This document shows, in pieces, positions 1,389 through 48,331 of a DNA stretch of 55,862 nucleotides (positions are counted from its first letter, which is position 1; each line of letters starts with the position of its first letter). The translations under genes and the position numbers were made by a program. Below the pieces are notes generated by a model. It saw only the letters and a list, made by a program, of their open reading frames with translations. It searched no databases and was not told the origin of the DNA. Where the stretch lies: IMG/VR virus record IMGVR_UViG_3300025862_000001, positions 1-55,862 of that record; one strand, 5' to 3'. Source of the DNA: a virus. Its lineage: Duplodnaviria > Caudoviricetes.

Positions 1389-2045
1389 ATGGCTAAAGCT
1401 GGGCCAGGTAAGACACTGTGTGGGGGCGCCAAGAACACCAAAAAACCCAACGGGTGCGGAAACCGTGCAGGCATGGGAACTCATCATGTTGGGGTTGGTC
1501 GCTGTTCGCTGCATGGAGGCAGGACCCTCACCCATGAAGTCTCCGGGCAACGAGAGCTCGCACAGAGACTGGCAGACCGGCTAGCGATCCCTGTTCGTAT
1601 CCACCCCTATGAGGCGCTCACGGATGCGCTAGCGATCGAGTGGGGATTCGTCGAGCACTTCAGACAGCAGGTCGTCGCTCTCGACCCGAGCATGGAATAC
1701 GTACGCCCGACTAGCAGGCTACGCAGGCCGCTGAATGAAGGCAAGGAAGGCGAGGATCCAGCGGTTGTGGTTGAAGAGATCACCGAAGCGCCGGCTGATG
1801 TGAACATCGCGATACGGCAGCTCGGTGTGTGGCTCGACCGGAGCACAAAGCTCAGTAAGGATATTGCGTCACTAGGGCTCGACGACCGCAAACTGAAACT
1901 TGACGAAGAACGTGGCCACGAGATAGGGGATGCGGTGCTAGCGATACTTGCTGGGCTCGACATCAAGATGGATGCTAAAGTGCTTGCTCTTGTGCACCGT
2001 GAGCTAACCGCAATCGACGCGACGTGTGTTGAGGAGGACACATGA
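1389..2045 (+). CDS. Probable terminase small subunit
   Basis: CGG..C...G..H.G.GRC.LHGG Zn-binding N-terminus followed by helical region; AGGAGA RBS; upstream of TerL. Confidence 0.65.
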   Translation: MAKAGPGKTLCGGAKNTKKPNGCGNRAGMGTHHVGVGRCSLHGGRTLTHEVSGQRELAQRLADRLAIPVRIHPYEALTDALAIEWGFVEHFRQQVVALDPSMEYVRPTSRLRRPLNEGKEGEDPAVVVEEITEAPADVNIAIRQLGVWLDRSTKLSKDIASLGLDDRKLKLDEERGHEIGDAVLAILAGLDIKMDAKVLALVHRELTAIDATCVEEDT

Positions 2046-2305
2046 GGCTTCGCGCGGCGCCGTTAGCTCGTGAGTGTGAGCGCCTGGTAGCGAACGGCAC
2101 ATACACTTGGTCTGATATCGCCTACAACTGCGGTATGACTGTTTCGTCGAAACAAGCTGATACGGCTCGGTTGCTTCGAGTGCTTGGTCTCAAGCCGGGG
2201 AGCGCGCCCGGCGCCCGCGTGAATCCCACCAAGCAACTAAGCGAAGCCACAGTCCACCTAATACTTCGGGCCATCAGCAAGGATCCGGTTGATGTCGGCT
2301 ACTAA
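2042..2305 (+). CDS. Putative HTH DNA-binding protein
   Basis: TWSDIAYNCG helix-turn-helix-like pattern; ATGA overlap. Confidence 0.5.
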   Translation: MRLRAAPLARECERLVANGTYTWSDIAYNCGMTVSSKQADTARLLRVLGLKPGSAPGARVNPTKQLSEATVHLILRAISKDPVDVGY

Positions 2306-2315
2306 GGAGTACACG

Positions 2316-2492
2316 ATGAAGATTGATTTGGGGAGAGGTAGCCTGCTAGGCGTTGCTTTCATTGTTTTGCGGCTCGTCGGCGTGATTCACTGGTCGTGGG
2401 TCTGGGTGCTGGCACCGTTCTGGATACCGTTTGTGATCGGGCTTGCTGTCGTTTTTCTTGTTGGCTTGTTCTCCTGGTGGACTGAGTGGTGA
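2316..2492 (+). CDS. Small membrane protein
   Basis: LRLVGVIHWSWVWVLAPFW motif common in phage membrane proteins; AAGGAG RBS. Confidence 0.75.
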   Translation: MKIDLGRGSLLGVAFIVLRLVGVIHWSWVWVLAPFWIPFVIGLAVVFLVGLFSWWTEW

Positions 2493-2701
2493 GGCGCACA
2501 GGCGGCCGGGTTCGCGGTTTCGTAGGTCTTTGGTTGCTCGCAATCACCGGCCTCTTCGACTGGTGGATGATTGAAGGGGCTAGCCTGCCGTGGGTAACGC
2601 CGCTAGGAGCCGCGGGACTCTACCTGCTGACCGTCACCTGCACCGTCGTCAGTTTAGCTTTTGTCGGTTGGCTCTGGCGCTATGACGGATTGTGCTAGAG
2701 T

Positions 2702-3052
2702 GTGTGGGTGCTAGACATACTCACAGCCGCGTTCATAGCCGTTGCTGCACTGTTTCACCCACATCTGACTCACCCAAACCAGGAGCATTTCACAGTCGAT
2801 TCGACCTGTTACGCCGAAGGTGGTCTGACCGCAAGTGGAACGCAAGCACACCTCGGAGAGGTAGCGGTGATGCCAGGCTTCCTACCGCTAGGCTCACGGA
2901 TCAAGCTGGACAATCCCGCGTTCGGCCGGCGAGTGTTCCGCGTCGAGGATCATATCGGGAGCGGCTCAGAACTCGACGTGTTCTACCCAAGTGAGGTTCG
3001 GTGCGAAGCATATGGCCGGCAACGTCGCGGGTTTGTGCTCTTGACACGGTAG
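2702..3052 (+). CDS. 3D-domain (MltA-like) cell-wall protein
   Basis: Hydrophobic N-terminus; TCY..G.TASG, VAV...LPLGS, VED.G, LDVF motifs. Confidence 0.85.
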   Translation: MWVLDILTAAFIAVAALFHPHLTHPNQEHFTVDSTCYAEGGLTASGTQAHLGEVAVMPGFLPLGSRIKLDNPAFGRRVFRVEDHIGSGSELDVFYPSEVRCEAYGRQRRGFVLLTR

Positions 3053-41593: not shown

Positions 41594-42007
41594 ATACAAA
41601 AAAACAACCAAACGAAAGGAACGGTGCTGTGATGAATTACGGTAAGCTCCTGATCGACGGGAGCACGTTCGGCCGCGCACATGCACGGCTCGATATGAAA
41701 CTCGCAGGGATCGAAGGCGTCGAGCCGGTCGCGCCTCACCTCAAGCTCGTATCGAACGCCGGCTACGCAGACACTCACCCTGAGGACTGGTACGATCGCG
41801 AGAAAGCAGCGCTGCGCGACGCCGGACGAGAGCTAACGTAACCGTCAAGGGCCGTGTATACTCTAAGCGTGCTCTAGAGGGCAACCGGCAACTTGCCGAG
41901 CATCCTACTGAGCGACCCGTGCGGTGCTGGCGTACAAGACAGCTTGGCGTCAGCAGCCCACGGAACACACCTAAAAATAAAAAGAACAATTGAATAAGGA
42001 GGACCGG

Positions 42008-42847
42008 ATGGCAACCGCTAAACCGAACTCTCGCACCCTACAGGAGAGCGAAAACGAACCGCTGCACGTCATGTACTACGGCGACGGCGGGACCGGCAAG
42101 TCTTCACACCTATGCTCGCTTGCGAACAACGGGCGTGTGCTGGTCGTGAATGCTGAGAAGGGAATCAAACGACGCGCACTACAGCGCATCGGCATAGCCG
42201 TCGAGAACATCGAGGTCTTCCCGGTAGGTGACGAGGAGATCACGTACGAGTCGCTAGAGCGCGAGTGGCTTCGCATACGTGAAGCCCTTCATGCAGACCC
42301 GACAGCGTACGTCGGATATCTGTGGGACTCAATGACGCAGATATACAACGTGCTTCTGGAACACGCTAAGGTCGCCGGAGAAGAGTGGGAAGCCCGTACC
42401 GGCAAGAAGCGAGATCCGCGTAACGACTTCGGTGACGCAAACGACCAGCTACGGAAGCTGACGCGGAAAGCAATGGACCTCCCTTGCCACTTCGGCGCCA
42501 GTGCGCTGGAGCGTCGCGACCAGGACGATGACGGCACCGTTACATACCGTCCGTCGATTCCACCGGGGTTGATGAAGGACACCTATGGATGGTTCGATCT
42601 GGTCGCACACACAACCCTAGAGGTGGTAGGCGAGCACGAACAATACCGCGGGCTATTCAAACCCCTCGGCAAGTACCGTGGTAAAGATCGTGAAGGGGTA
42701 ATGCCGCGAACGGTAGTCAACCCGTCGTTTGATCGAGTCATCGCCTACGCGGAGGAGTCGCTAACAGCAAAGACCGACCCAGTTATGATAACTGCACAAG
42801 AGCAAATCAGCGCACAAAAGAAAACCACAACGCAAGAGGAGAAGTAA
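42008..42847 (+). CDS. AAA ATPase (Sak4/AAA_24-like recombination protein)
   Basis: YGDGGTGKS, NAEKG, WDSMT, GKDR. Confidence 0.88.
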   Translation: MATAKPNSRTLQESENEPLHVMYYGDGGTGKSSHLCSLANNGRVLVVNAEKGIKRRALQRIGIAVENIEVFPVGDEEITYESLEREWLRIREALHADPTAYVGYLWDSMTQIYNVLLEHAKVAGEEWEARTGKKRDPRNDFGDANDQLRKLTRKAMDLPCHFGASALERRDQDDDGTVTYRPSIPPGLMKDTYGWFDLVAHTTLEVVGEHEQYRGLFKPLGKYRGKDREGVMPRTVVNPSFDRVIAYAEESLTAKTDPVMITAQEQISAQKKTTTQEEK

Positions 42848-43222
42848 GTGACACGAGAGGAGCTAGCATGGCTAGCGGGACTCTTAGAGGGTGAGGGCAG
42901 TTTCTTTCTTGTGAAAAAGAAGTCTGGTCGCTCCTACCCGAGAGTCTCACTAAACATGACGGACGAGGATGTCATCGAACGAGCCGCGAACTTGTTAGGC
43001 CGTGGGTACTATCCTTTTCCAAGGAAGCCTCCTCGCAAGGAACAGTTTGCACTCCAAATCGAAGGGCGCGGTGCGGTAGTTCTCATGGAGGAGATACTTC
43101 TTTTTATGGGTTTGCGCCGATCAGCTCAACTCAACGAACTCATCAAATACCATTACGAAAACGCAGCTTACAAACAAAGGAAAGGTGAGCACAATTCCCA
43201 AGCTAAACAAAAAACAAGCTAA
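42848..43222 (+). CDS. LAGLIDADG homing endonuclease
   Basis: LAWLAGLLEGEGSF, MTDEDVI. Confidence 0.9.
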   Translation: MTREELAWLAGLLEGEGSFFLVKKKSGRSYPRVSLNMTDEDVIERAANLLGRGYYPFPRKPPRKEQFALQIEGRGAVVLMEEILLFMGLRRSAQLNELIKYHYENAAYKQRKGEHNSQAKQKTS

Positions 43223-43655
43223 AGATGTCGGCGACGCTAGCGGGAGCTTTGATCCCCTAGAGGATGGTGTTTATCATGCAAGACTTAGAAGTGTCGAGGT
43301 AAGTGATAACGCTGGGCCTTCTGGCAGTTTCTATTGGAAGTGGGAGTTCGAGGTCGTAGAGGAGCCATACGTAAACCGGCGCCTGTGGACGAACACATCA
43401 CTCGCTGAGGCAGCGGCCTTCAAGCTCAAGGAGATGTTCGACGCGTTCGGTGTAGACAACGACACCGACACGGACGAGCTGTGCGGTCAGGTAGTGCGTC
43501 TGGTAGTGTCCACGCGCACGATCCAGGAGGGCTCACGTAAGGGCGAGGCATCCAATCAGATCGACCGCGTGTCGCCGGCCGACGAGTCCTTCGAGGCACC
43601 CGAGGCCGAGGCAACAGGTGCCGTCAAAGGAGCGGACGGAGAGGATTTATTCTAA
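43185..43655 (+). CDS. DUF669-like single-stranded DNA-binding protein
   Basis: FDPL.DG.Y, WEFEV, acidic tail ending DLF. Confidence 0.85.
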   Translation: MSTIPKLNKKQAKDVGDASGSFDPLEDGVYHARLRSVEVSDNAGPSGSFYWKWEFEVVEEPYVNRRLWTNTSLAEAAAFKLKEMFDAFGVDNDTDTDELCGQVVRLVVSTRTIQEGSRKGEASNQIDRVSPADESFEAPEAEATGAVKGADGEDLF

Positions 43656-43771
43656 GATAGAGGTACATGGGCAGCCGCAGCGTCGAGTCCTCTCCCCGGT
43701 CCCCTCGACGCCCGCCGAGCGTGTTTATAAACGACCCGTAGCCGGGCGCCCACTCTTACTAGAACCTAACG

Positions 43772-44980
43772 ATGGCAAAACCTCTCACAGTCGGCTCGCT
43801 CTTTGCGGGGATAGGAGGCTTCGACCTAGGACTTGAGCGGGCCGGTATGAAAACCGCATGGTTCTGTGAGCAAAACACATACTGCCAAAAGGTACTAGCG
43901 AAGCATTGGCCTAAAGTACCCTGTTACGATGATGTCTGTGAGATCGGAGCGCACAATGTCAAACCTGTTGATATTCTCGCCGGAGGATTCCCCTGCCAAG
44001 ATATCTCAACGGCTGGTAAGGGGGCGGGGCTCGCAGGTGCGCGGTCGAGTCTTTGGCGAGAGTTTGCCCGACTCATTGGCGAGCTTCGACCTTCCTACGT
44101 CATCGTGGAGAATGTTCCAGCTCTCCGCAGACGGGGCTTGCATCAGGTCCTCCATGACCTCGATGCGTGCGGGTATGATGCGGAGTGGGACGGTATATCC
44201 GCTTCGGCCGTTGGCGCCCCTCACCGCCGCGACAGAATCTGGATTGTTGCCTACCACAACAGCGACGATGGGCGATCGTGGGGGGCGAGGGGATTTGCTC
44301 CAGGCAGTGAGAGGCAATCTGAGCCCGAGCGGGCACTTCACGTTCCCGTCCCCAACGCAGGCGGACGGAACTGGAGGGCCGGGACGGTCAGCAGCGACGA
44401 GGGGTGGTGGGCCTCTGAACCCGACGTGGGTCGAGGGCTTGATGGGTTTTCTCGCTGGCTGGACGGACGTGACCTAAATGCCGATGCCCTACACGGACTG
44501 CGGGCCGAAGATTTGCGAGTTCTGCAAAGGCGAGTACAGGCGTCGCCGGCAACAGTCTACGCGGACATTTCAGCGGAGCAAGTTCTGCTCGCTTACCTGC
44601 GCCAACTCACGTCGAGATGTGACGGAGGGGACGTTGCGCTGGCGTGCCCGGAAGCTGCGGGGTCCGAAATGCGAGGCATGCGGGACGACACGCAAGCTCC
44701 AGGCTCACCATGTCGATCAGGACATAGCGAACAACCATCCGACCAACATCCAGACGCTCTGCAAGGAGTGCCACGACTTCTGGCACGCGACGCAGAGGCG
44801 ACTTGGCTGGCTTATCGCAGGTCGGATGCCTGCCCTCAACTGGGATGGGAGGACGGCATCGCCAGAGTCGCCGATGGAGTCCCCCACCGGGTACACAGAC
44901 TTAGGGCTCTCGGCAACAGTCTCGTCCCACAGATCGCCCAGTGGGTCGGTGAGCAGATCGTAGCGTTCGATAATGGCTAA
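43772..44980 (+). CDS. C5 cytosine DNA methyltransferase (alpha chain)
   Basis: SLFAGIGG, GGFPCQD, VENV, HRRDR, LGNSLVP. Confidence 0.95.
   Translation: MAKPLTVGSLFAGIGGFDLGLERAGMKTAWFCEQNTYCQKVLAKHWPKVPCYDDVCEIGAHNVKPVDILAGGFPCQDISTAGKGAGLAGARSSLWREFARLIGELRPSYVIVENVPALRRRGLHQVLHDLDACGYDAEWDGISASAVGAPHRRDRIWIVAYHNSDDGRSWGARGFAPGSERQSEPERALHVPVPNAGGRNWRAGTVSSDEGWWASEPDVGRGLDGFSRWLDGRDLNADALHGLRAEDLRVLQRRVQASPATVYADISAEQVLLAYLRQLTSRCDGGDVALACPEAAGSEMRGMRDDTQAPGSPCRSGHSEQPSDQHPDALQGVPRLLARDAEATWLAYRRSDACPQLGWEDGIARVADGVPHRVHRLRALGNSLVPQIAQWVGEQIVAFDNG
43956..44477 (+). CDS. Nested alternative-frame C5-MTase beta chain
   Basis: GMMRSG, LLPT, LNPTWVEGLMGF..GWT (motif IX-like); GGAG RBS. Confidence 0.75.
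   Translation: MSNLLIFSPEDSPAKISQRLVRGRGSQVRGRVFGESLPDSLASFDLPTSSWRMFQLSADGACIRSSMTSMRAGMMRSGTVYPLRPLAPLTAATESGLLPTTTATMGDRGGRGDLLQAVRGNLSPSGHFTFPSPTQADGTGGPGRSAATRGGGPLNPTWVEGLMGFLAGWTDVT
44478..44963 (+). CDS. HNH endonuclease overprinted within the MTase gene
   Basis: CEFC, KFCSLTC, CEACG, AHHVD...NN...N..TLCKECH. Confidence 0.85.
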   Translation: MPMPYTDCGPKICEFCKGEYRRRRQQSTRTFQRSKFCSLTCANSRRDVTEGTLRWRARKLRGPKCEACGTTRKLQAHHVDQDIANNHPTNIQTLCKECHDFWHATQRRLGWLIAGRMPALNWDGRTASPESPMESPTGYTDLGLSATVSSHRSPSGSVSRS

Positions 44981-47462
44981 GCTCCGTGACGCTCAAGCGC
45001 TGCATAAGCTCGGCTGGCGCGTCGTAGCTGCTCCGCTCGCCGGCAAGTCACCTCTAAACTCGTGGAAGGGTGCGCAGACCGAACCGGCGACTTCGGCCGA
45101 GCTAAAGGAGGCGTTTGCGAAGGACAGAAACCTCTTCATCGTTACCGGAGCGATCAGCCGGCTAGCGGTGCTCGACTGTGACGACAAGCAAGCAGAGATC
45201 TACTGGCACGAGCGACTCGGAGACGTACTCGACGAAACGACCTGCGTTGCGACCGGCCGCGGGCGCCACTACTACTTTCGTTTAGCTGAGGGTGAGATCC
45301 ACAAAGGGAGATCGTCCCCCGGCGGAGATAGCGGCAAGTGGGACATACGCGCCGAGGCCGGCGGCGTGATTGCACCGCCTAGTGTTCACGCTGGAGGAAG
45401 AGTTTATAGGTGGGGCCAAGGCCGCGGCCCTGACGCCATACAAGACGCTCCAGAGGAGCTGTGGGCCGGTGAGAAGAAGGCGGAGGACAAGCTGAGCGGC
45501 CCATCCTCACTGCTCTCACACCTGCTAGCGAACCCGCCGGAGGAAGGCGCGCGAAATAACTGGCTGGCGCGAGTTGCGGGTCACTACGCCGTCGAACTCA
45601 AGCACCAAGACGCTTTCGAAGAGACCGTGCGCGGACTCGGGCAGAGTGTCGGACTTGAAGACGAGGAGATCAAGAAGCTAATCGCGTCAATCTGGAACGC
45701 CGAGCAAGCCAAGGAGGGCAAAGCCGCGCCAGAGGACGCGCCAGAGGGTGAGGGCGGAGACTGGCGCATCGGACAATGCACAGAATCCTCCGGCTACCTG
45801 ATGAGTGGCGACACACGCATCCTAACCCAGATTCGCGAACGTGACTCAGACGGCGGCTTTCAGATCGCGTTAGCGCCCTGGCTAGACGCAGACCTACGCG
45901 CGATCGGAATCTTCGAAATGCCAGACGAGACGCGACTCTACCACGTCGAGATCCGCACGCCCGGCAAAGTGTACGACGGCGACGTCGGATCGAAGACGCT
46001 AGGCGACTCACGCCAGCTAGTCCAGTGGCTTGCAAGCTTTGGCGTCAGCCTATCGGCGCCGGACGGGATCTTCCCCCGCGGTATGGCGTCAGGCGCTCGC
46101 CTCGTGCGCTACCTAGAGGCACAGCAGCCGCCCGTACAGCTAGCCGTCGCGGCACTGGGATGGCATGAGGAGTCAGCGGCGTTCATCACCCACGAAGGGC
46201 TCCTACGCGCCGACGGTTTCGCGCCGTTTGAGGCCGTTCGCCCCTCTCCGCGCGTAAAGCAGTGGGCACCGTACGTTTACGGCTTAGAGGGCGCCGAGCA
46301 CTCCGCACAGGCGGTGCTGTCCGAGGTGCTGACCTTCCACGATGAGCGCGTTGCGGCCATCTTCGGTGCGTGGTGGGCAGCCTGCCTACTCAAGCCGCAG
46401 ATCGCACACGAGTTCTCGCAGTTTCCATTTATGGCCTTGGAGGCGCCTTCAGAGAGCGGAAAGACAATTGGTTACTTTCCCTTGATGTTGGAATTGGCTG
46501 GCAATACCCAAGGGAACAGCAACCCCACACGCGCCGCGATGCGCGACTACCTCTCAGCTCATCGCTCCGGGATCGTGTGGGTCGATGACCTAGACAACCT
46601 AGACGCACTCGGAGAGCTTATCCGCGGCTCAACCGTCGGCGGGTCCGTGGTAAAGAAGGCGCTCAACCAGTCAGACCAAATCTCCGTTCGGCTTGAGGCT
46701 GCGCTGTGTGTCAGCGGTGAGTCGCTGGGCCTACACGGCCAGAAGGCGCTGCTCGACCGCAGCATAGGGCTGGAGGTGCCCTCGCCCGTCGGTAGGCGCT
46801 CCCTGCACGGCGACTACTCCCAGTTTCAGGACATCGTAGAGCTGAAACGCAAGCACCCGGCGCTGAGCGACTTCGCCGGCACGTACATGGTGCGTGCGCT
46901 AAAGCTAGTACCGGAAATACCCTCTAAGGCTCTCGATCTCCGAGAGGGCGACGGACGGTTGATGGACAAGCTCACAATCATGCGGCTCGGCTGCTGGGTT
47001 CTCCGTACGTTGATCGACCGCGATAGCAGCGATTGGATCGAACGCCACGTTGAGGGGTGGGTAGCTGAGCAGCGCGCAGATTACGACCCAACCGACAATA
47101 GCCTCACGATGCAGCTACTACCAGCCGCTATCAAGCGCCTGGGGCGCCCCGCACAGCCGCTCGGACCAGATACCAGTAGGTCTAGGCCAGCGAGCCCCGC
47201 ATTCGTGAGAGCGCACGAGAAAGACTTATGGTTCAACCCGACCACGCTCGCGGAATGGTGGAGCGACATCCACTATGGGCGAATCGACCAGCGCACCGCG
47301 TCCTCTGAAGCGCTCCGCCAGCAGGCAAAAGCGATTGGTGCTGGGGGAAAGAAGGGGACAGATCGTCGTTATTTCCCGTACTCGACCGGGTCTGGGGGAG
47401 CAAACTTTTGGCGTCTTCCAGACAAGATCGCCGCTCAGGTGCTCAAGCGCGCGGAGGAATAG
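44973..47462 (+). CDS. Bifunctional primase-polymerase with helicase-like domain
   Basis: VLDCD, TGRGRHYYF, DIRA.GGVIAPPS.H, RNN, APSESGKT. Confidence 0.9.
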   Translation: MAKLRDAQALHKLGWRVVAAPLAGKSPLNSWKGAQTEPATSAELKEAFAKDRNLFIVTGAISRLAVLDCDDKQAEIYWHERLGDVLDETTCVATGRGRHYYFRLAEGEIHKGRSSPGGDSGKWDIRAEAGGVIAPPSVHAGGRVYRWGQGRGPDAIQDAPEELWAGEKKAEDKLSGPSSLLSHLLANPPEEGARNNWLARVAGHYAVELKHQDAFEETVRGLGQSVGLEDEEIKKLIASIWNAEQAKEGKAAPEDAPEGEGGDWRIGQCTESSGYLMSGDTRILTQIRERDSDGGFQIALAPWLDADLRAIGIFEMPDETRLYHVEIRTPGKVYDGDVGSKTLGDSRQLVQWLASFGVSLSAPDGIFPRGMASGARLVRYLEAQQPPVQLAVAALGWHEESAAFITHEGLLRADGFAPFEAVRPSPRVKQWAPYVYGLEGAEHSAQAVLSEVLTFHDERVAAIFGAWWAACLLKPQIAHEFSQFPFMALEAPSESGKTIGYFPLMLELAGNTQGNSNPTRAAMRDYLSAHRSGIVWVDDLDNLDALGELIRGSTVGGSVVKKALNQSDQISVRLEAALCVSGESLGLHGQKALLDRSIGLEVPSPVGRRSLHGDYSQFQDIVELKRKHPALSDFAGTYMVRALKLVPEIPSKALDLREGDGRLMDKLTIMRLGCWVLRTLIDRDSSDWIERHVEGWVAEQRADYDPTDNSLTMQLLPAAIKRLGRPAQPLGPDTSRSRPASPAFVRAHEKDLWFNPTTLAEWWSDIHYGRIDQRTASSEALRQQAKAIGAGGKKGTDRRYFPYSTGSGGANFWRLPDKIAAQVLKRAEE

Positions 47463-47527: not shown

Positions 47528-48331
47528 ATGGATGTAGTAGCGACGCTGCGAGAGATCGCAGATCAACTAGAGGAGGCGACAGCAAGCGCCGATGTGTTCG
47601 TCTTCAACGACAGGGAAGGACCGGTTTCTGCTGCCCGGCACACGAACCCCAACGGTAGCGTAGGCGGGTGGGTCGCTGCAACTGCCACAGTAGCATCATC
47701 CGCGTGGGTGCTCGGTAACGCGCGGGTGTACGGTAACGCGTGGGTGCTCGGAGACGTGTGGGTGGACGGTAACGCGCAGGTGTACGGTAACGCGTGGGTG
47801 GACGGTAACGCGCAGGTGTACGGTAACGCGAAGGTGCTCGGTGACGCGGGGGTGGACGGTAACGCGAAGGTGCTCGGAGACGCGTGGGTGGACGGTAACG
47901 CGAAGGTGCTCGGAGACGCGTGGGTGGGTGGTAACGCGAAGGTGCTCGGAGACGCGTGGGTGGGTGGTAACGCGAAGGTGCTCGGAGACGTGTGGGTGTA
48001 CGGTAACGCGAAGGTGTTCGGAGACGCGTGGGTGGACGGTGACGCGAAGGTGTACGGTAACGCGCAGGTGTACGGTAACGCGTGGGTGCTCGGAGACGTG
48101 TGGGTGGACGGTGACGCGAAGGTGTACGGTAACGCGAAGGTGTACGGTAACGCGTGGGTGCTCGGTAACGCGCAGGTGCTCGGTGACGCGGGGGTGTACG
48201 ATGACGCGAAGGTGTACGGTAACGCGAAGGTGTACGGTAACGCGTGGGTGTACGGTAACGCGTGGGTGTACGGTAACGCGAAGGTGTACGGTAACGCGTG
48301 GGTGTACGGTGACGCGAAGGTGTCTCAATGA
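47528..48331 (+). CDS. Left-handed beta-helix (hexapeptide repeat) protein
   Basis: More than 30 G(N/D)A(W/K/Q)V(Y/L/D) repeats (18-nt DNA repeat); AAGGAGG RBS. Confidence 0.9.
   Translation: MDVVATLREIADQLEEATASADVFVFNDREGPVSAARHTNPNGSVGGWVAATATVASSAWVLGNARVYGNAWVLGDVWVDGNAQVYGNAWVDGNAQVYGNAKVLGDAGVDGNAKVLGDAWVDGNAKVLGDAWVGGNAKVLGDAWVGGNAKVLGDVWVYGNAKVFGDAWVDGDAKVYGNAQVYGNAWVLGDVWVDGDAKVYGNAKVYGNAWVLGNAQVLGDAGVYDDAKVYGNAKVYGNAWVYGNAWVYGNAKVYGNAWVYGDAKVSQ

Follow-up and report, generated by a model that had tools for sequence, protein, structure and literature searches.

A probable HNH homing endonuclease gene, with the host frame open across it, inside an alpha/beta C5 methyltransferase gene of a phage

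A two-chain C5 cytosine methyltransferase gene of the EcoHK31I-like alpha/beta type carries within it a predicted HNH endonuclease gene, and the frame of the alpha chain stays open across this insertion. The gene is found in the window, i.e., the whole stretch of DNA analysed, which comprises 55,862 nucleotides of a virus of the Caudoviricetes (IMG/VR record IMGVR_UViG_3300025862_000001). It is likely that the HNH gene is a mobile homing endonuclease gene and that alpha is read through across it. The features of the region are listed in Table 1.

Table 1. Coordinates of the methyltransferase, nuclease and insertion features in the window
Feature	Position	Strand	Description
alpha ORF	43772..44980	+	402 aa; C5 cytosine methyltransferase; motifs I-VIII, linker, 144-aa insert out of the HNH frame, motif X
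beta ORF	43929..44477	+	182 aa counted from the first ATG; nested in the +1 frame of alpha; TRD-like part and motif-IX-like end LNPTWVEGLMGFLAGWTDVT before the stop
tract unlike the HNH-free sibling phage	44255..44908	+	from after motif VIII (WIVAY) to LGN of motif X; TRD-coding part of beta and HNH
upstream copy of the dual-coding segment	44417..44477	+	kept for the beta C-terminus; alpha frame reads EPDVGRGLDGFSRWLDGRDL
insertion, placed by protein alignment with HNH-free homologues	44432..44863	+	alpha residues 221-364; 432 nt, 144 codons
HNH endonuclease ORF	44478..44963	+	161 aa, ATG start; same frame as beta, +1 to alpha
HNH catalytic core and CxxC...CxxCH zinc site	44670..44786	+	HNH residues 65-103; from Pfam, invariant columns and structural matches over model residues 49-120
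downstream copy of the dual-coding segment	44849..44908	+	kept for alpha (EDGIARVADGVPHRVHRLRA); HNH/beta frame reads ...MESPTGYTDLG
motif X core of alpha, LGNSLVPQ	44909..44932	+	residues 380-387; L380, G381, N382, V385 and P386 conserved; contacts with beta 165-179 in the model

Three overlapping reading frames

The alpha ORF matches PF00145 of Pfam over residues 6-166 (profile positions 2-166, E 1.5e-42) and phrog_363 (E 3.9e-78). It holds every motif residue that is invariant in the homologue alignment and ends in RLRALGNSLVPQ. The names of the motifs in both chains follow what we take to be their consensus. The alpha frame is uninterrupted over its entire length, across the HNH ORF and up to motif X. 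In the AF2 model of alpha, residues 1-160 and 381-402 are confident and residues 171-380 fall in pLDDT blocks of 34-59. Searched as DNA against the phage collection, 43700-45100 yielded four weak matches, all to the methyltransferase N-domain, and no close cultured relative of this region.

The nested beta ORF matches phrog_1008 ('DNA methyltransferase', E 2.2e-19) and phrog_26627 (E 1.2e-4). Among 64 viral loci with both alpha and beta matches, 52 have a +1 frame that is open for at least 158 codons, and loci with a GC content of 0.33-0.42 are included. Conserved TRD-like repeats (LPTP..., WPTP...) are found in beta, while the matching stretch of alpha is poorly conserved. The conservation of beta is highest after motif VIII, where that of alpha is lowest. 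For this reason, and because beta is open even in the loci of low GC, the notion that beta is a mere shadow of alpha conservation was rejected. Long alpha ORFs of the type found in locus L040 were considered as hosts of another hidden nuclease and were rejected as well, since they contain only a longer beta interrupted by a stop.

According to profiles, alignments and models, the motifs are distributed over the two chains as in the M.EcoHK31I type: motifs I-VIII and X in alpha and the motif-IX part in beta. The complex model of alpha and beta scores 0.88 against 0.00 for the best of three controls, a pass that likeness to solved single-chain C5 enzymes may explain; of 80 solved complexes, 58 pass the mark used for this score, as do 2 of 110 mismatched pairs. 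The runs share at least 77% of contacts, with a partner pLDDT of 51-59. The modelled interface consists of alpha 359-387 and beta 160-182, and the insert lies outside it. The model supports binding of the two chains, which may together make an active methyltransferase. M.EcoHK31I itself is described, in passages of PMC2836561, as a two-chain C5 methyltransferase in which beta lies inside alpha in another frame and both chains are needed. Compared by this description, the window is alike in that beta is nested in an alternative frame of alpha; it differs in that the alpha chain of M.EcoHK31I also carries the TRD (PMC2836561, same passages), whereas the TRD-like repeats of the window are in beta.

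The preliminary description of this DNA proposed a complete HNH ORF right after the stop of beta, and such an ORF is present, its ATG at 44478 adjoining the TAA of beta (44475-44477). By sequence and structural model, it is predicted to encode an HNH protein: the match to phrog_1271 ('HNH endonuclease') has an E of 1.7e-14, and a profile search against PDB finds the HNH region of IscB (E 9.3e-6). The Pfam HNH match covers residues 65-100 with 17.5 bits, which is below the cut-off of 21.4. All family-invariant residues (C13, C16, C37, C41, C65, C68, H77, H78, N90, C95, C98, and H99) are present, and the last eight form the His-His ... Asn ... His core with two CxxC pairs. The AF2 model of the HNH has a mean pLDDT of 81, with blocks of 78-97 for residues 11-120. 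Its VIA matches to HNH domains are middling (Z 5-6.8): the top one is 8yha_A (Z 6.8, rmsd 2.5, 70 residues), and another is 5h0m (Z 5.6, rmsd 2.6, 62 residues). Foldseek with the same model found no match in PDB at E <= 0.001, the E values being at least 0.11. HNH residues ~121-161 are probably a mere shadow of the DNA coding for the C-terminus of alpha.

In six loci (the window, L078, L081, L082, L084, and L085), the HNH ATG is located 0-3 nt past the beta stop, which suggests that translation of the HNH is coupled to this stop. In L082, L084, and L085, the WTE codons of beta provide a GGAGG 8-11 nt upstream of the HNH ATG. The SD-like sequence of the window is weak (GGACGGAC, not GGAGG).

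Insertion and open host frame

Alignment with HNH-free homologues, the check proposed in the preliminary description, delimits an insertion of 144 codons between 'EPDVG' and 'RVADGVP' of alpha. It is equally placeable at 44478-44909 because its flanks are repeated. The invariant residues around it are W213 and E216, then R365; in the alpha frame the insert opens with RGLDG and is followed directly by R365. The closest homologue (P0003, 262 aa), with an N-domain 93% identical to that of alpha, has no counterpart of alpha residues 221-364, and the identity of the two proteins is 93%, 24%, and 72% in three successive segments. A sibling phage (49,365-nt contig, run X4) also has no HNH: 44254 is joined to 44909, where likeness resumes, with 654 nucleotides skipped and 234 letters between. 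The tract that is unlike the sibling, including the TRD part, could be the product of ordinary recombination between conserved motifs and not of endonuclease-driven co-conversion.

The DNA of the window may stem from runs X1 and X2. In another run (X3), the sequence of the window occurs in short contigs and the bins 44632-44853 are uncovered; this hole proves nothing.

The flanks had been noted to look duplicated in both frames, and this holds. One copy starts at 44417 and the other exactly 432 nt further on, at 44849. Compared in register, they agree at 31 of 69 bases, where the background is 17.8 +- 3.7 and a count of 31 is reached in 0.05% of 7971 windows. When the flanks were aligned locally as DNA under stringent settings, the result was not significant, since 1900 of 2000 shuffles gave a score as high. 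From the in-register comparison and the logic of the protein families, the repeat is judged to be real but weak at the DNA level. In HNH-free alleles, a single stretch of DNA codes for the end of beta and for the segment of alpha before motif X; in the window this stretch is present twice. With the segment doubled around the HNH, the two frames are each served by a copy of their own, and this duplication accounts for the flank repeat.

The alpha frame had been described as open across the HNH to motif X, and across relatives this openness goes beyond chance. The comparison covers 14 embedded members of this HNH family, namely that of the window, those of 12 viral loci, and that of Staphylococcus phage CUB-EPI_14 (GC 0.35). 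Their GC contents are 0.35-0.65, and none of the 14 has a stop in the host frame. Synonymous shuffles preserving the codon counts of each locus give 2.7-11.1 expected stops in this frame, and the P of no stop ranges from 0/5000 to 0.037 per locus. Since the shuffle keeps codon counts, it tests the arrangement of codons and not codon usage. P is 0.006 or less for embedded loci of GC 0.35-0.50, and for the window alone (GC 0.62) it is 0.03, which is marginally unlikely. The other off-frame of the embedded copies has about as many stops as expected (2-12 observed vs 2.0-10.0 expected), and four free-standing HNH controls have 5-17 stops in the corresponding frame. In bacterial genomes, five of the six copies next to a C5 N-domain are embedded and free of stops, and the sixth (L099), just 3' of the alpha gene, has nine; 54 of the 55 HNH matches without a methyltransferase have at least one stop. 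In L103 the HNH is truncated and the host frame is still open. Judged by these comparisons, selection holds the host frame stop-free.

Within the insert, the nucleotide entropy at HNH codon positions 1, 2, and 3 is 0.87, 0.76, and 1.25. Pairs of translations (36 pairs from 9 sequences, over 112 columns) are on average 0.51 identical when read in the HNH frame and 0.30 identical when read in that of alpha. On these sequence measures, the HNH frame is the constrained one. Read in the alpha frame, the insert has a pLDDT mostly below 50 in the AF2 model and 30% identity among relatives. Such a variable and poorly folded stretch fits a tolerated loop.

Mobility and competing explanations

The insert is present in 56 and absent in 64 of the best 120 alpha homologues. 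On a tree of the N-domain (FastTree, 116 of the 120 proteins, 161 columns, with many open forks), it needs at least seven changes, three of which are forced by starred branches. The window belongs to a starred clade of five, and the other four members have no insert. Among these related methylase sequences, the distribution of the insert is patchy. Its clustering on the tree is nonetheless strong, as none of 500 shuffles needed as few as seven changes, and much of the distribution is therefore vertical.

These features would be explained by an HNH gene of the free-standing type lodged in the host methyltransferase gene, 3' of the beta stop and in the frame of beta. Lying in that frame right after the stop, it is 'intergenic' for beta and internal for alpha. 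Alpha would remain unspliced, and ribosomes in the alpha frame would traverse the HNH DNA one base out of register. The read-through product would contain a loop of ~144 residues, mostly disordered, between the linker and the motif-X helix, which is the position of the variable region in a normal C5 enzyme. Selection could keep the alpha frame stop-free at no cost to the HNH protein because, as deduced from the genetic code, a stop requires an NNT codon of the HNH before AA, AG, or GA, and any NNT codon can be replaced by NNC without altering the amino acid. Translation of the HNH probably depends on re-initiation or coupling at the stop of beta. The HNH would presumably spread by cutting the HNH-free alleles of co-infecting relatives, after which repair would copy the HNH in along with the neighbouring variable region.

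An intein was rejected as the endonuclease is not in the host frame and no Hint family was found; the insert starts with RGLDG and is followed by R365. An HNH that is +1 to alpha cannot be an intein domain, and the search of alpha for Hint or intein families found PF00145 as the sole Pfam family. A group I or group II intron with an endonuclease ORF was rejected too, because no Rfam family matches 43500-45300 at E <= 1 and selection keeps the host frame open. Divergent introns may escape covariance models, and the first part of the insert is similar to what follows the site, a feature also weighed as intron-like in PMC11855218. It is nevertheless very unlikely that the insert is removed before the protein functions, whether a self-splicing intron that went unrecognised or an intein-like element takes it out or ribosomes bypass it, leaving alpha loop-free: the host frame is stop-free in all 14 copies, selection for which would be purposeless if it were spliced or bypassed, and the repeat is accounted for by the dual-coding segment. 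Among the public runs listed, there is no RNA run with this region. The 144-codon insertion, the searches without Rfam or Hint matches and the 14 open frames support what the preliminary description had put forward, namely invasion by a homing endonuclease without intron or intein, tolerated as an overprinted loop.

The other readings concern what the methyltransferase and the nuclease are for. It is very unlikely that the methyltransferase is dead or dispensable and that the HNH alone matters, the open alpha frame being left over from the past or a mere effect of composition. The window alone, with its GC of 0.62 and P of 0.03, would allow it, and phage methylases can be non-essential, as is argued in section 4.1 of PMC11855218. 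However, this reading does not agree with the absence of stops in all 14 copies, loci of GC 0.35-0.50 with P <= 0.006 among them, with the nine stops gathered by the same HNH family outside the gene (L099), or with an intact beta and an alpha in which all alignment-invariant motif residues are kept. Another reading makes the HNH a domesticated partner that is not selfish, or not solely so; it and the methyltransferase would be a compact restriction-modification-like or exclusion module cutting DNA without the alpha/beta mark, and nesting would mean co-inheritance. Related HNHs accompany two unrelated methyltransferase superfamilies (C5 here and N6_N4 in Applejack gp54/gp55), L099 has the same HNH family directly 3' of an alpha/beta gene, and the HNH and the specificity-determining part of beta differ together from the sibling phage. 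But the methyltransferase is without the HNH in 64 of the best 120 homologues, the closest included; the HNH of L103 has decayed while its host frame is open; the insertions lie in DNA that codes for conserved motifs, which is the usual case in homing; and nothing links the specificity of the nuclease to the TRD. Domestication is therefore considered unlikely. It is quite unlikely, too, that the HNH and the specificity region of beta are one cassette moving between motif VIII and motif X DNA, with the nuclease tuned to the cassette's own mark. If this were true, the nuclease would cut the genomes of the host or of HNH-free rival phages that do not have the methylation, and the gene would be a three-frame self-protecting exclusion module and not a mere parasite of a methyltransferase.

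Relation to known systems and implications

A hidden HNH of this kind has a described precedent, the 'ShiLan domain'. According to portions of PMC11855218, it is an out-of-frame HNH in phage N6/N4-type methylases, described in 2025 in a few mycobacteriophage methylases, and leaderless initiation is proposed for it. Compared with the description given there, the window has in common an HNH ORF in another frame within a stop-free methylase ORF, the absence of signatures of an intron or intein, an insert whose first residues are like those after the site, a patchy distribution, and a host-frame reading that folds poorly (PMC11855218, same portions). It differs from the ShiLan kind in that the host gene is dual-coding, the HNH starts at the beta stop, and the repeat is the duplicated dual-coding segment. 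The published example that was compared by sequence is Applejack (accession from PMC12613952), ShiLan being compared by description. The HNH of Applejack likewise lies +1 to its host frame: the offset is 355 nt there and 706 nt in the window, and both numbers are 1 mod 3. Its host, gp54, is an N6_N4 methylase (PF01555, E 5.8e-31), whereas alpha of the window matches PF00145, and the two HNHs are remotely alike (29% identity over 94 aa, pairwise E 2e-4). The window thus appears to be of the same kind as the ShiLan domain, but with another HNH lineage and methylase family than Applejack. In tblastn searches of the phage collection, no Mycobacterium phage match to the HNH of the window was obtained at E <= 1e-3, and the ShiLan phage was not found with two HNH queries.

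Homing endonuclease genes are usually said to persist in useful or even essential host genes via introns, inteins, or intergenic sites, or by splitting a gene. Like inteins and intron-encoded homing endonucleases, the nuclease gene of the window is at a conserved site of a conserved host gene without destroying it, is patchily present, and decays after fixation (here in L103). Unlike them, it lacks a splicing element, the extra residues are predicted to stay in the host protein, and the nuclease is in another frame. Free-standing homing endonucleases can split or abut host genes, for example mobE in nrdA of T-even-like phages. The window resembles this type in having a free-standing HNH-type gene with its own start right after a stop (here that of beta) and likely co-conversion of flanks. 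It differs in that alpha is not split into two polypeptides and a single open frame runs across the nuclease gene. We know of no HNH in M.EcoHK31I. In the article texts covered, no description joins a homing endonuclease with overprinting, and what there is on out-of-frame homing endonucleases and methylases deals with actinobacteriophages, besides one unrelated review. What appears to be new here is the EcoHK31I-like alpha/beta C5 host, and hence the three overlapping frames, together with the start of the HNH at or just past the beta stop in six loci and the frequency of the arrangement (56 of the best 120 alpha homologues).

Out-of-frame read-through would be a further survival route for homing endonuclease genes. 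The same arrangement is common among the C5 methyltransferases of phages from the environment and of prophages of several phyla, and a Staphylococcus phage has it too. The openness of the host frame is under measurable selection, and the duplication of the dual-coding segment explains a flank repeat that was puzzling. The location of the nuclease at the stop of a nested beta may be a testable answer to how a hidden HNH gets translated. Thousands of database 'methyltransferases' of 400-500 aa would hide an unannotated nuclease gene, and many of them an unannotated beta as well.

Three overlapping frames at the methyltransferase locus

The window's record is complete (55.9 kb, with terminal repeats). 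The preliminary description of a gene hidden inside a methyltransferase gene is correct in its coordinates and in every descriptive element, including ORF positions, frames and the step from the beta TAA to the HNH ATG (Table). As it also claimed, the alpha frame stays open across the HNH ORF up to motif X, and alpha ends with RLRALGNSLVPQ in the motif-X region. No Pfam family is matched by beta.

Table. Positions of the ORFs discussed, in the window and in other records
Feature	Record	Position	Strand	Description
alpha	window	43772..44980	+	402 aa; C5 cytosine methyltransferase; PF00145 E 1.5e-42 (residues 6-166), phrog_363 E 3.9e-78
beta	window	43929..44477	+	182 aa counted from first ATG; alpha's +1 frame; phrog_1008 'DNA methyltransferase' E 2.2e-19, phrog_26627 E 1.2e-4
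HNH ORF	window	44478..44963	+	161 aa; shares beta's frame; ATG immediately 3' of beta's TAA
ATPase-like ORF	window	41990-42847		
LAGLIDADG-like ORF	window	42848-43222	+	124 aa; GTG start immediately after stop of ATPase-like ORF; Pfam LAGLIDADG_3 22.3 bits, cut-off 22.5
Repeat ORF	window	47528-48331	+	267 aa; nearly all 'GNAKVxGDAWV'-type repeats
Single ORF	L074/L075	2869-3945		alpha N-domain (to ENVPGL), then in-frame beta-type sequence; motifs VIII and X absent
Split methyltransferase	L080	1699-3036		N-domain out of frame with TRD, insert and motif X
Split methyltransferase	L102	1594-3111		as L080
HNH homologue	L093, Komagataeibacter phage phiKX1	1887-2402		annotated as two short hypothetical CDS
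Alpha/beta gene and HNH	L099, Spirosoma lacussanchae	1405-2863		HNH free-standing
Shortened HNH frame	L103, Acutalibacter sp. genome contig	1931-2146		72 codons

The window's HNH protein is a genuine HNH, and the evidence beyond Pfam is stronger than the Pfam score (17.5 bits, under the 21.4 cut-off). It matches phrog_1271 'HNH endonuclease' at E 1.7e-14, and 17 of the 19 PHROG families that it matches are annotated as HNH endonuclease or endonuclease. All residues invariant in an alignment of 13 relatives are kept (C13, C16, C37, C41, C65, C68, H77, H78, N90, C95, C98 and H99), and the family profile matches the IscB HNH region at E 9.3e-6. In the AF2 model, confidence is high over residues 11-120 (pLDDT blocks 78-97) and low in the tail, 121-161. 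Foldseek with this model gives no match at E <= 0.001, and its best rows are HNH nucleases at E 0.1-1. VIA ranks HNH domains at the top of these rows, with middling Z (8yha_A, Z 6.8, rmsd 2.5, 70 aligned; 5h0m, Z 5.6, rmsd 2.6, 62 aligned). The LAGLIDADG-like ORF 1.2 kb 5' of the HNH is a candidate for a second homing endonuclease of the free-standing type. Over the repeat ORF, long open frames are also present on the minus strand and in a different forward frame.

With tblastn, 70 of the 76 viral loci fetched with P0003, an insert-free homologue of alpha, show beta-like sequence. Both an alpha and a beta match at E <= 1e-5 are present in 64 loci, and in 62 of them beta occupies alpha's +1 frame; 12 more viral loci have no such pair and are outside the 64. 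At the match, beta's frame is open for 158 codons or more in 52 of the 64, including low-GC loci (L057, GC 0.33, 258 codons; L038, GC 0.40; L070, GC 0.42). Conservation of beta peaks after motif VIII, precisely where that of alpha is lowest. For M.EcoHK31I, a beta wholly encoded in another frame of alpha is reported (PMC2836561), and the window's beta is likewise nested in an alternative frame of alpha. Nested alpha/beta genes are widespread and unannotated in C5 methyltransferases (L002-L077; L097). In Mycobacterium phage Che9d gp80 (L097) the beta match is +1 to a lone CDS annotated 'DNA methyltransferase'. The single ORF in L074/L075 probably arose through a deletion or a frameshift.

Modelled together, alpha and beta score 0.88 (best of 3 controls, 0.00); 58 of 80 solved complexes attain this mark, as do 2 of 110 mismatched pairs. 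At least 77% of contacts are shared between runs, with a partner pLDDT of 51-59. The interface pairs beta 160-182 with alpha 359-387 and does not include the insert. The model supports alpha-beta binding but does not show it, and likeness to solved single-chain C5 enzymes may explain the pass.

The insertion and its flanks

A search with alpha gave the 8000 best-scoring candidate proteins, 7999 of them at E <= 0.001, and the analysis used the top 120. Alignment with HNH-free homologues, which the preliminary description had called for, defines the insertion as alpha residues 221-364 (432 nt), missing from P0003 and from the 49,365-nt contig of sequencing run X4, an HNH-free sibling phage. In the insert-free proteins P0003, P0022 and P0023, '..EPxVG' runs directly into 'RVAxGVPxR..RLxALGN', while the window and others have approximately 145-170 additional residues between '..EPxVG' and 'RVAxGVPxR'. 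P0003 (262 aa), the closest among the best 120 of the 7999 homologues, is without the insert. Alpha minus its insert is identical to P0003 at 153 of 165 residues (93%) up to motif VIII, 13 of 55 (24%) in the linker after it and 31 of 43 (72%) at the C-terminus. The X4 contig shows few differences from the window as far as 44254 and likeness returns at 44909; between these points 234 different letters replace the window's 654. The unlike tract thus starts just past WIVAY in motif VIII, extends as far as motif X with its LGN, and covers beta's TRD-coding part and the HNH.

In HNH-free loci a single stretch of DNA encodes both '..EPxxxRVAxGxxNRxDR..' in alpha and '..NPxFxEWLMGFPxGWTEL', followed by the stop, in beta. 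This dual-coding stretch is present twice in the window. The copy from 44417 keeps beta's end, LMGFLAGWTDVT and the stop, and in the alpha frame has diverged to RGLDGFSRWLD; the copy from 44849, 432 nt on, keeps alpha's RVADGVPHRVHRL, and its beta-frame reading, MESPTGYTDL, is a mere HNH ORF tail. The flanks are therefore duplicated in both frames, as first proposed, because a doubled overlap lets each copy serve one frame. Compared in register, the two copies are identical at 31 of 69 bases (background 17.8 +- 3.7; 31 reached by 0.05% of 7971 windows), and a stringent local DNA alignment of the two is not significant.

The HNH ATG lies 0-3 nt past the beta stop in the window and five other loci (L078, L081, L082, L084 and L085), and 30 nt past it in L083. 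In L082, L084 and L085, GGAGG is found 8-11 nt 5' of the ATG, made by beta's final W-T-E-(V) codons TGG ACG GAG G..; the window has the weaker sequence GGACGGAC at this position, and the more distant members L088 and L092 have classical AGGAGG sites. This stop/start geometry suggests that HNH translation would be coupled to beta's termination. For a hidden mycobacteriophage HNH, PMC11855218 proposes leaderless initiation instead.

Selection on the open host frame

The viral contig search was seeded with the HNH protein rather than the methyltransferase, because loci with broken host frames are thereby also findable. It gave 14 loci, two near-identical to each other and two on contigs fetched earlier. 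Twelve distinct viral loci have, one base behind the HNH, a frame that is open over the entire HNH ORF and ends in C5 motif X; in the remaining one, L091, a distant HNH lies outside any methyltransferase gene. Staphylococcus phage CUB-EPI_14, from the phage collection, is a thirteenth embedded case (GC 0.35 in the HNH ORF), within a CDS annotated only 'DNA-cytosine methyltransferase'.

Synonymous-codon shuffles of every HNH ORF predict 2.7 to 11.1 host-frame stops, and all 14 embedded copies, the window among them, have none (P(0) per locus 0/5000 to 0.037; window alone, 0.031). The other off-frame has 2-12 stops, as the shuffles predict (2.0-10.0), and four free-standing HNH controls have 5-17 in the corresponding frame. 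A further HNH-seeded scan covered the genomes of bacteria and archaea; of its 61 loci, six have a C5 N-domain upstream of the HNH. Five of these (L100-L104; Actinomycetota, Alphaproteobacteria, Bacillota and Betaproteobacteria) are embedded, with 0 stops. In the sixth, L099, a free-standing HNH gene of the same family follows a complete alpha/beta gene, whose final 32 nt it overlaps, and has 9 stops in 120 codons in the frame that embedded copies keep stop-free. At least one stop is found in 54 of the 55 HNH loci without a methyltransferase match, the exception having 58 codons only and GC 0.69. Judged from these sequence comparisons, the open host frame is the result of selection rather than chance.

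The hidden HNH lies 5' of motif IX in L100 and L102, single-chain actinobacterial-type enzymes, and after alpha residue ~116 in L104; the family therefore uses several sites, with the host frame open each time. The split frames of L080 and L102 reflect either an M.AquI-like enzyme of two ORFs or a frameshift. The phiKX1 HNH homologue has a lone stop in the -1 frame (6.4 expected from shuffles); it may be a decaying case, an embedded copy broken recently.

In nine codon-aligned HNH ORFs (112 gap-free columns), nucleotide entropy is 0.87, 0.76 and 1.25 at the first, second and third HNH codon positions, as is characteristic of DNA that codes for protein in the HNH frame. Identity averages 0.51 in the HNH frame versus 0.30 in the alpha frame over 36 pairs, and conserved alpha-frame patches (e.g., VLLAYLRQL) overlie the HNH's invariant KFCSLTCAN and the HNH core. 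AF2 of alpha (50-row alignment) has high confidence for residues 1-160 and the final helix, 386-401, and pLDDT blocks of 34-59 for linker and insert (171-380). With such low conservation and pLDDT, the alpha-frame reading of the insert looks like a passenger loop.

Possible gain and decay, and published precedents

The window-type insert is present in 56 of the best 120 of the 7999 homologues (blastp E <= 1e-3). On an N-domain FastTree of 116 of these proteins (161 columns; four dropped for no near-full N-domain match) it requires at least 7 gains or losses, 3 forced by starred branches, and its presence shows strong clustering (mean of 38.7 over 500 shuffles, none of which gives so low a number). 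The window and four insert-free proteins together form a starred clade. This clade, the mosaic relation to P0003 and the sibling contig suggest that the window's lineage acquired the insert recently or, alternatively, that its relatives lost it precisely. In L103 the HNH frame ends before the HNH core and the host frame is still open (478 aa); this looks like a decaying endonuclease in a retained insert, the decay stage expected of a homing element.

Arsenault, Gosselin and Gogarten 2025 (PMC11855218) describe the 'ShiLan domain', a 202-aa insertion in a mycobacteriophage methylase. Its host frame is stop-free with a 195-aa HNH concealed in another frame; it is without an intron or intein signature, its distribution is patchy, and its first 11 residues are similar to those following the site. 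Pacc40 is given there as a second case, and Applejack gp54/gp55 is annotated likewise in a 2025 genome announcement (PMC12613952). The Applejack HNH, offset +1 from its host frame as in the window, resembles the window's HNH only remotely (pairwise E 2e-4; 29% over 94 aa). It lies in a gene for an N6_N4 methylase (PF01555, E 5.8e-31), unlike the window's C5 host. With the window's HNH, tblastn finds no Mycobacterium phage at E <= 1e-3, and a literature search, supplements and repository aside, did not find the arrangement described for C5 or alpha/beta methyltransferases.

The comparative evidence supports the original proposal that a homing endonuclease invaded without intron or intein and would be tolerated in alpha; we infer that alpha is translated through the insert, that the enzyme is active, and that coupling and homing occur. 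This kind of element is already published. What is new is the C5 host family, the three overlapping frames and the placement of the HNH at a nested gene's stop, together with an explanation of the flank repeat and a quantification of selection and of wide occurrence.
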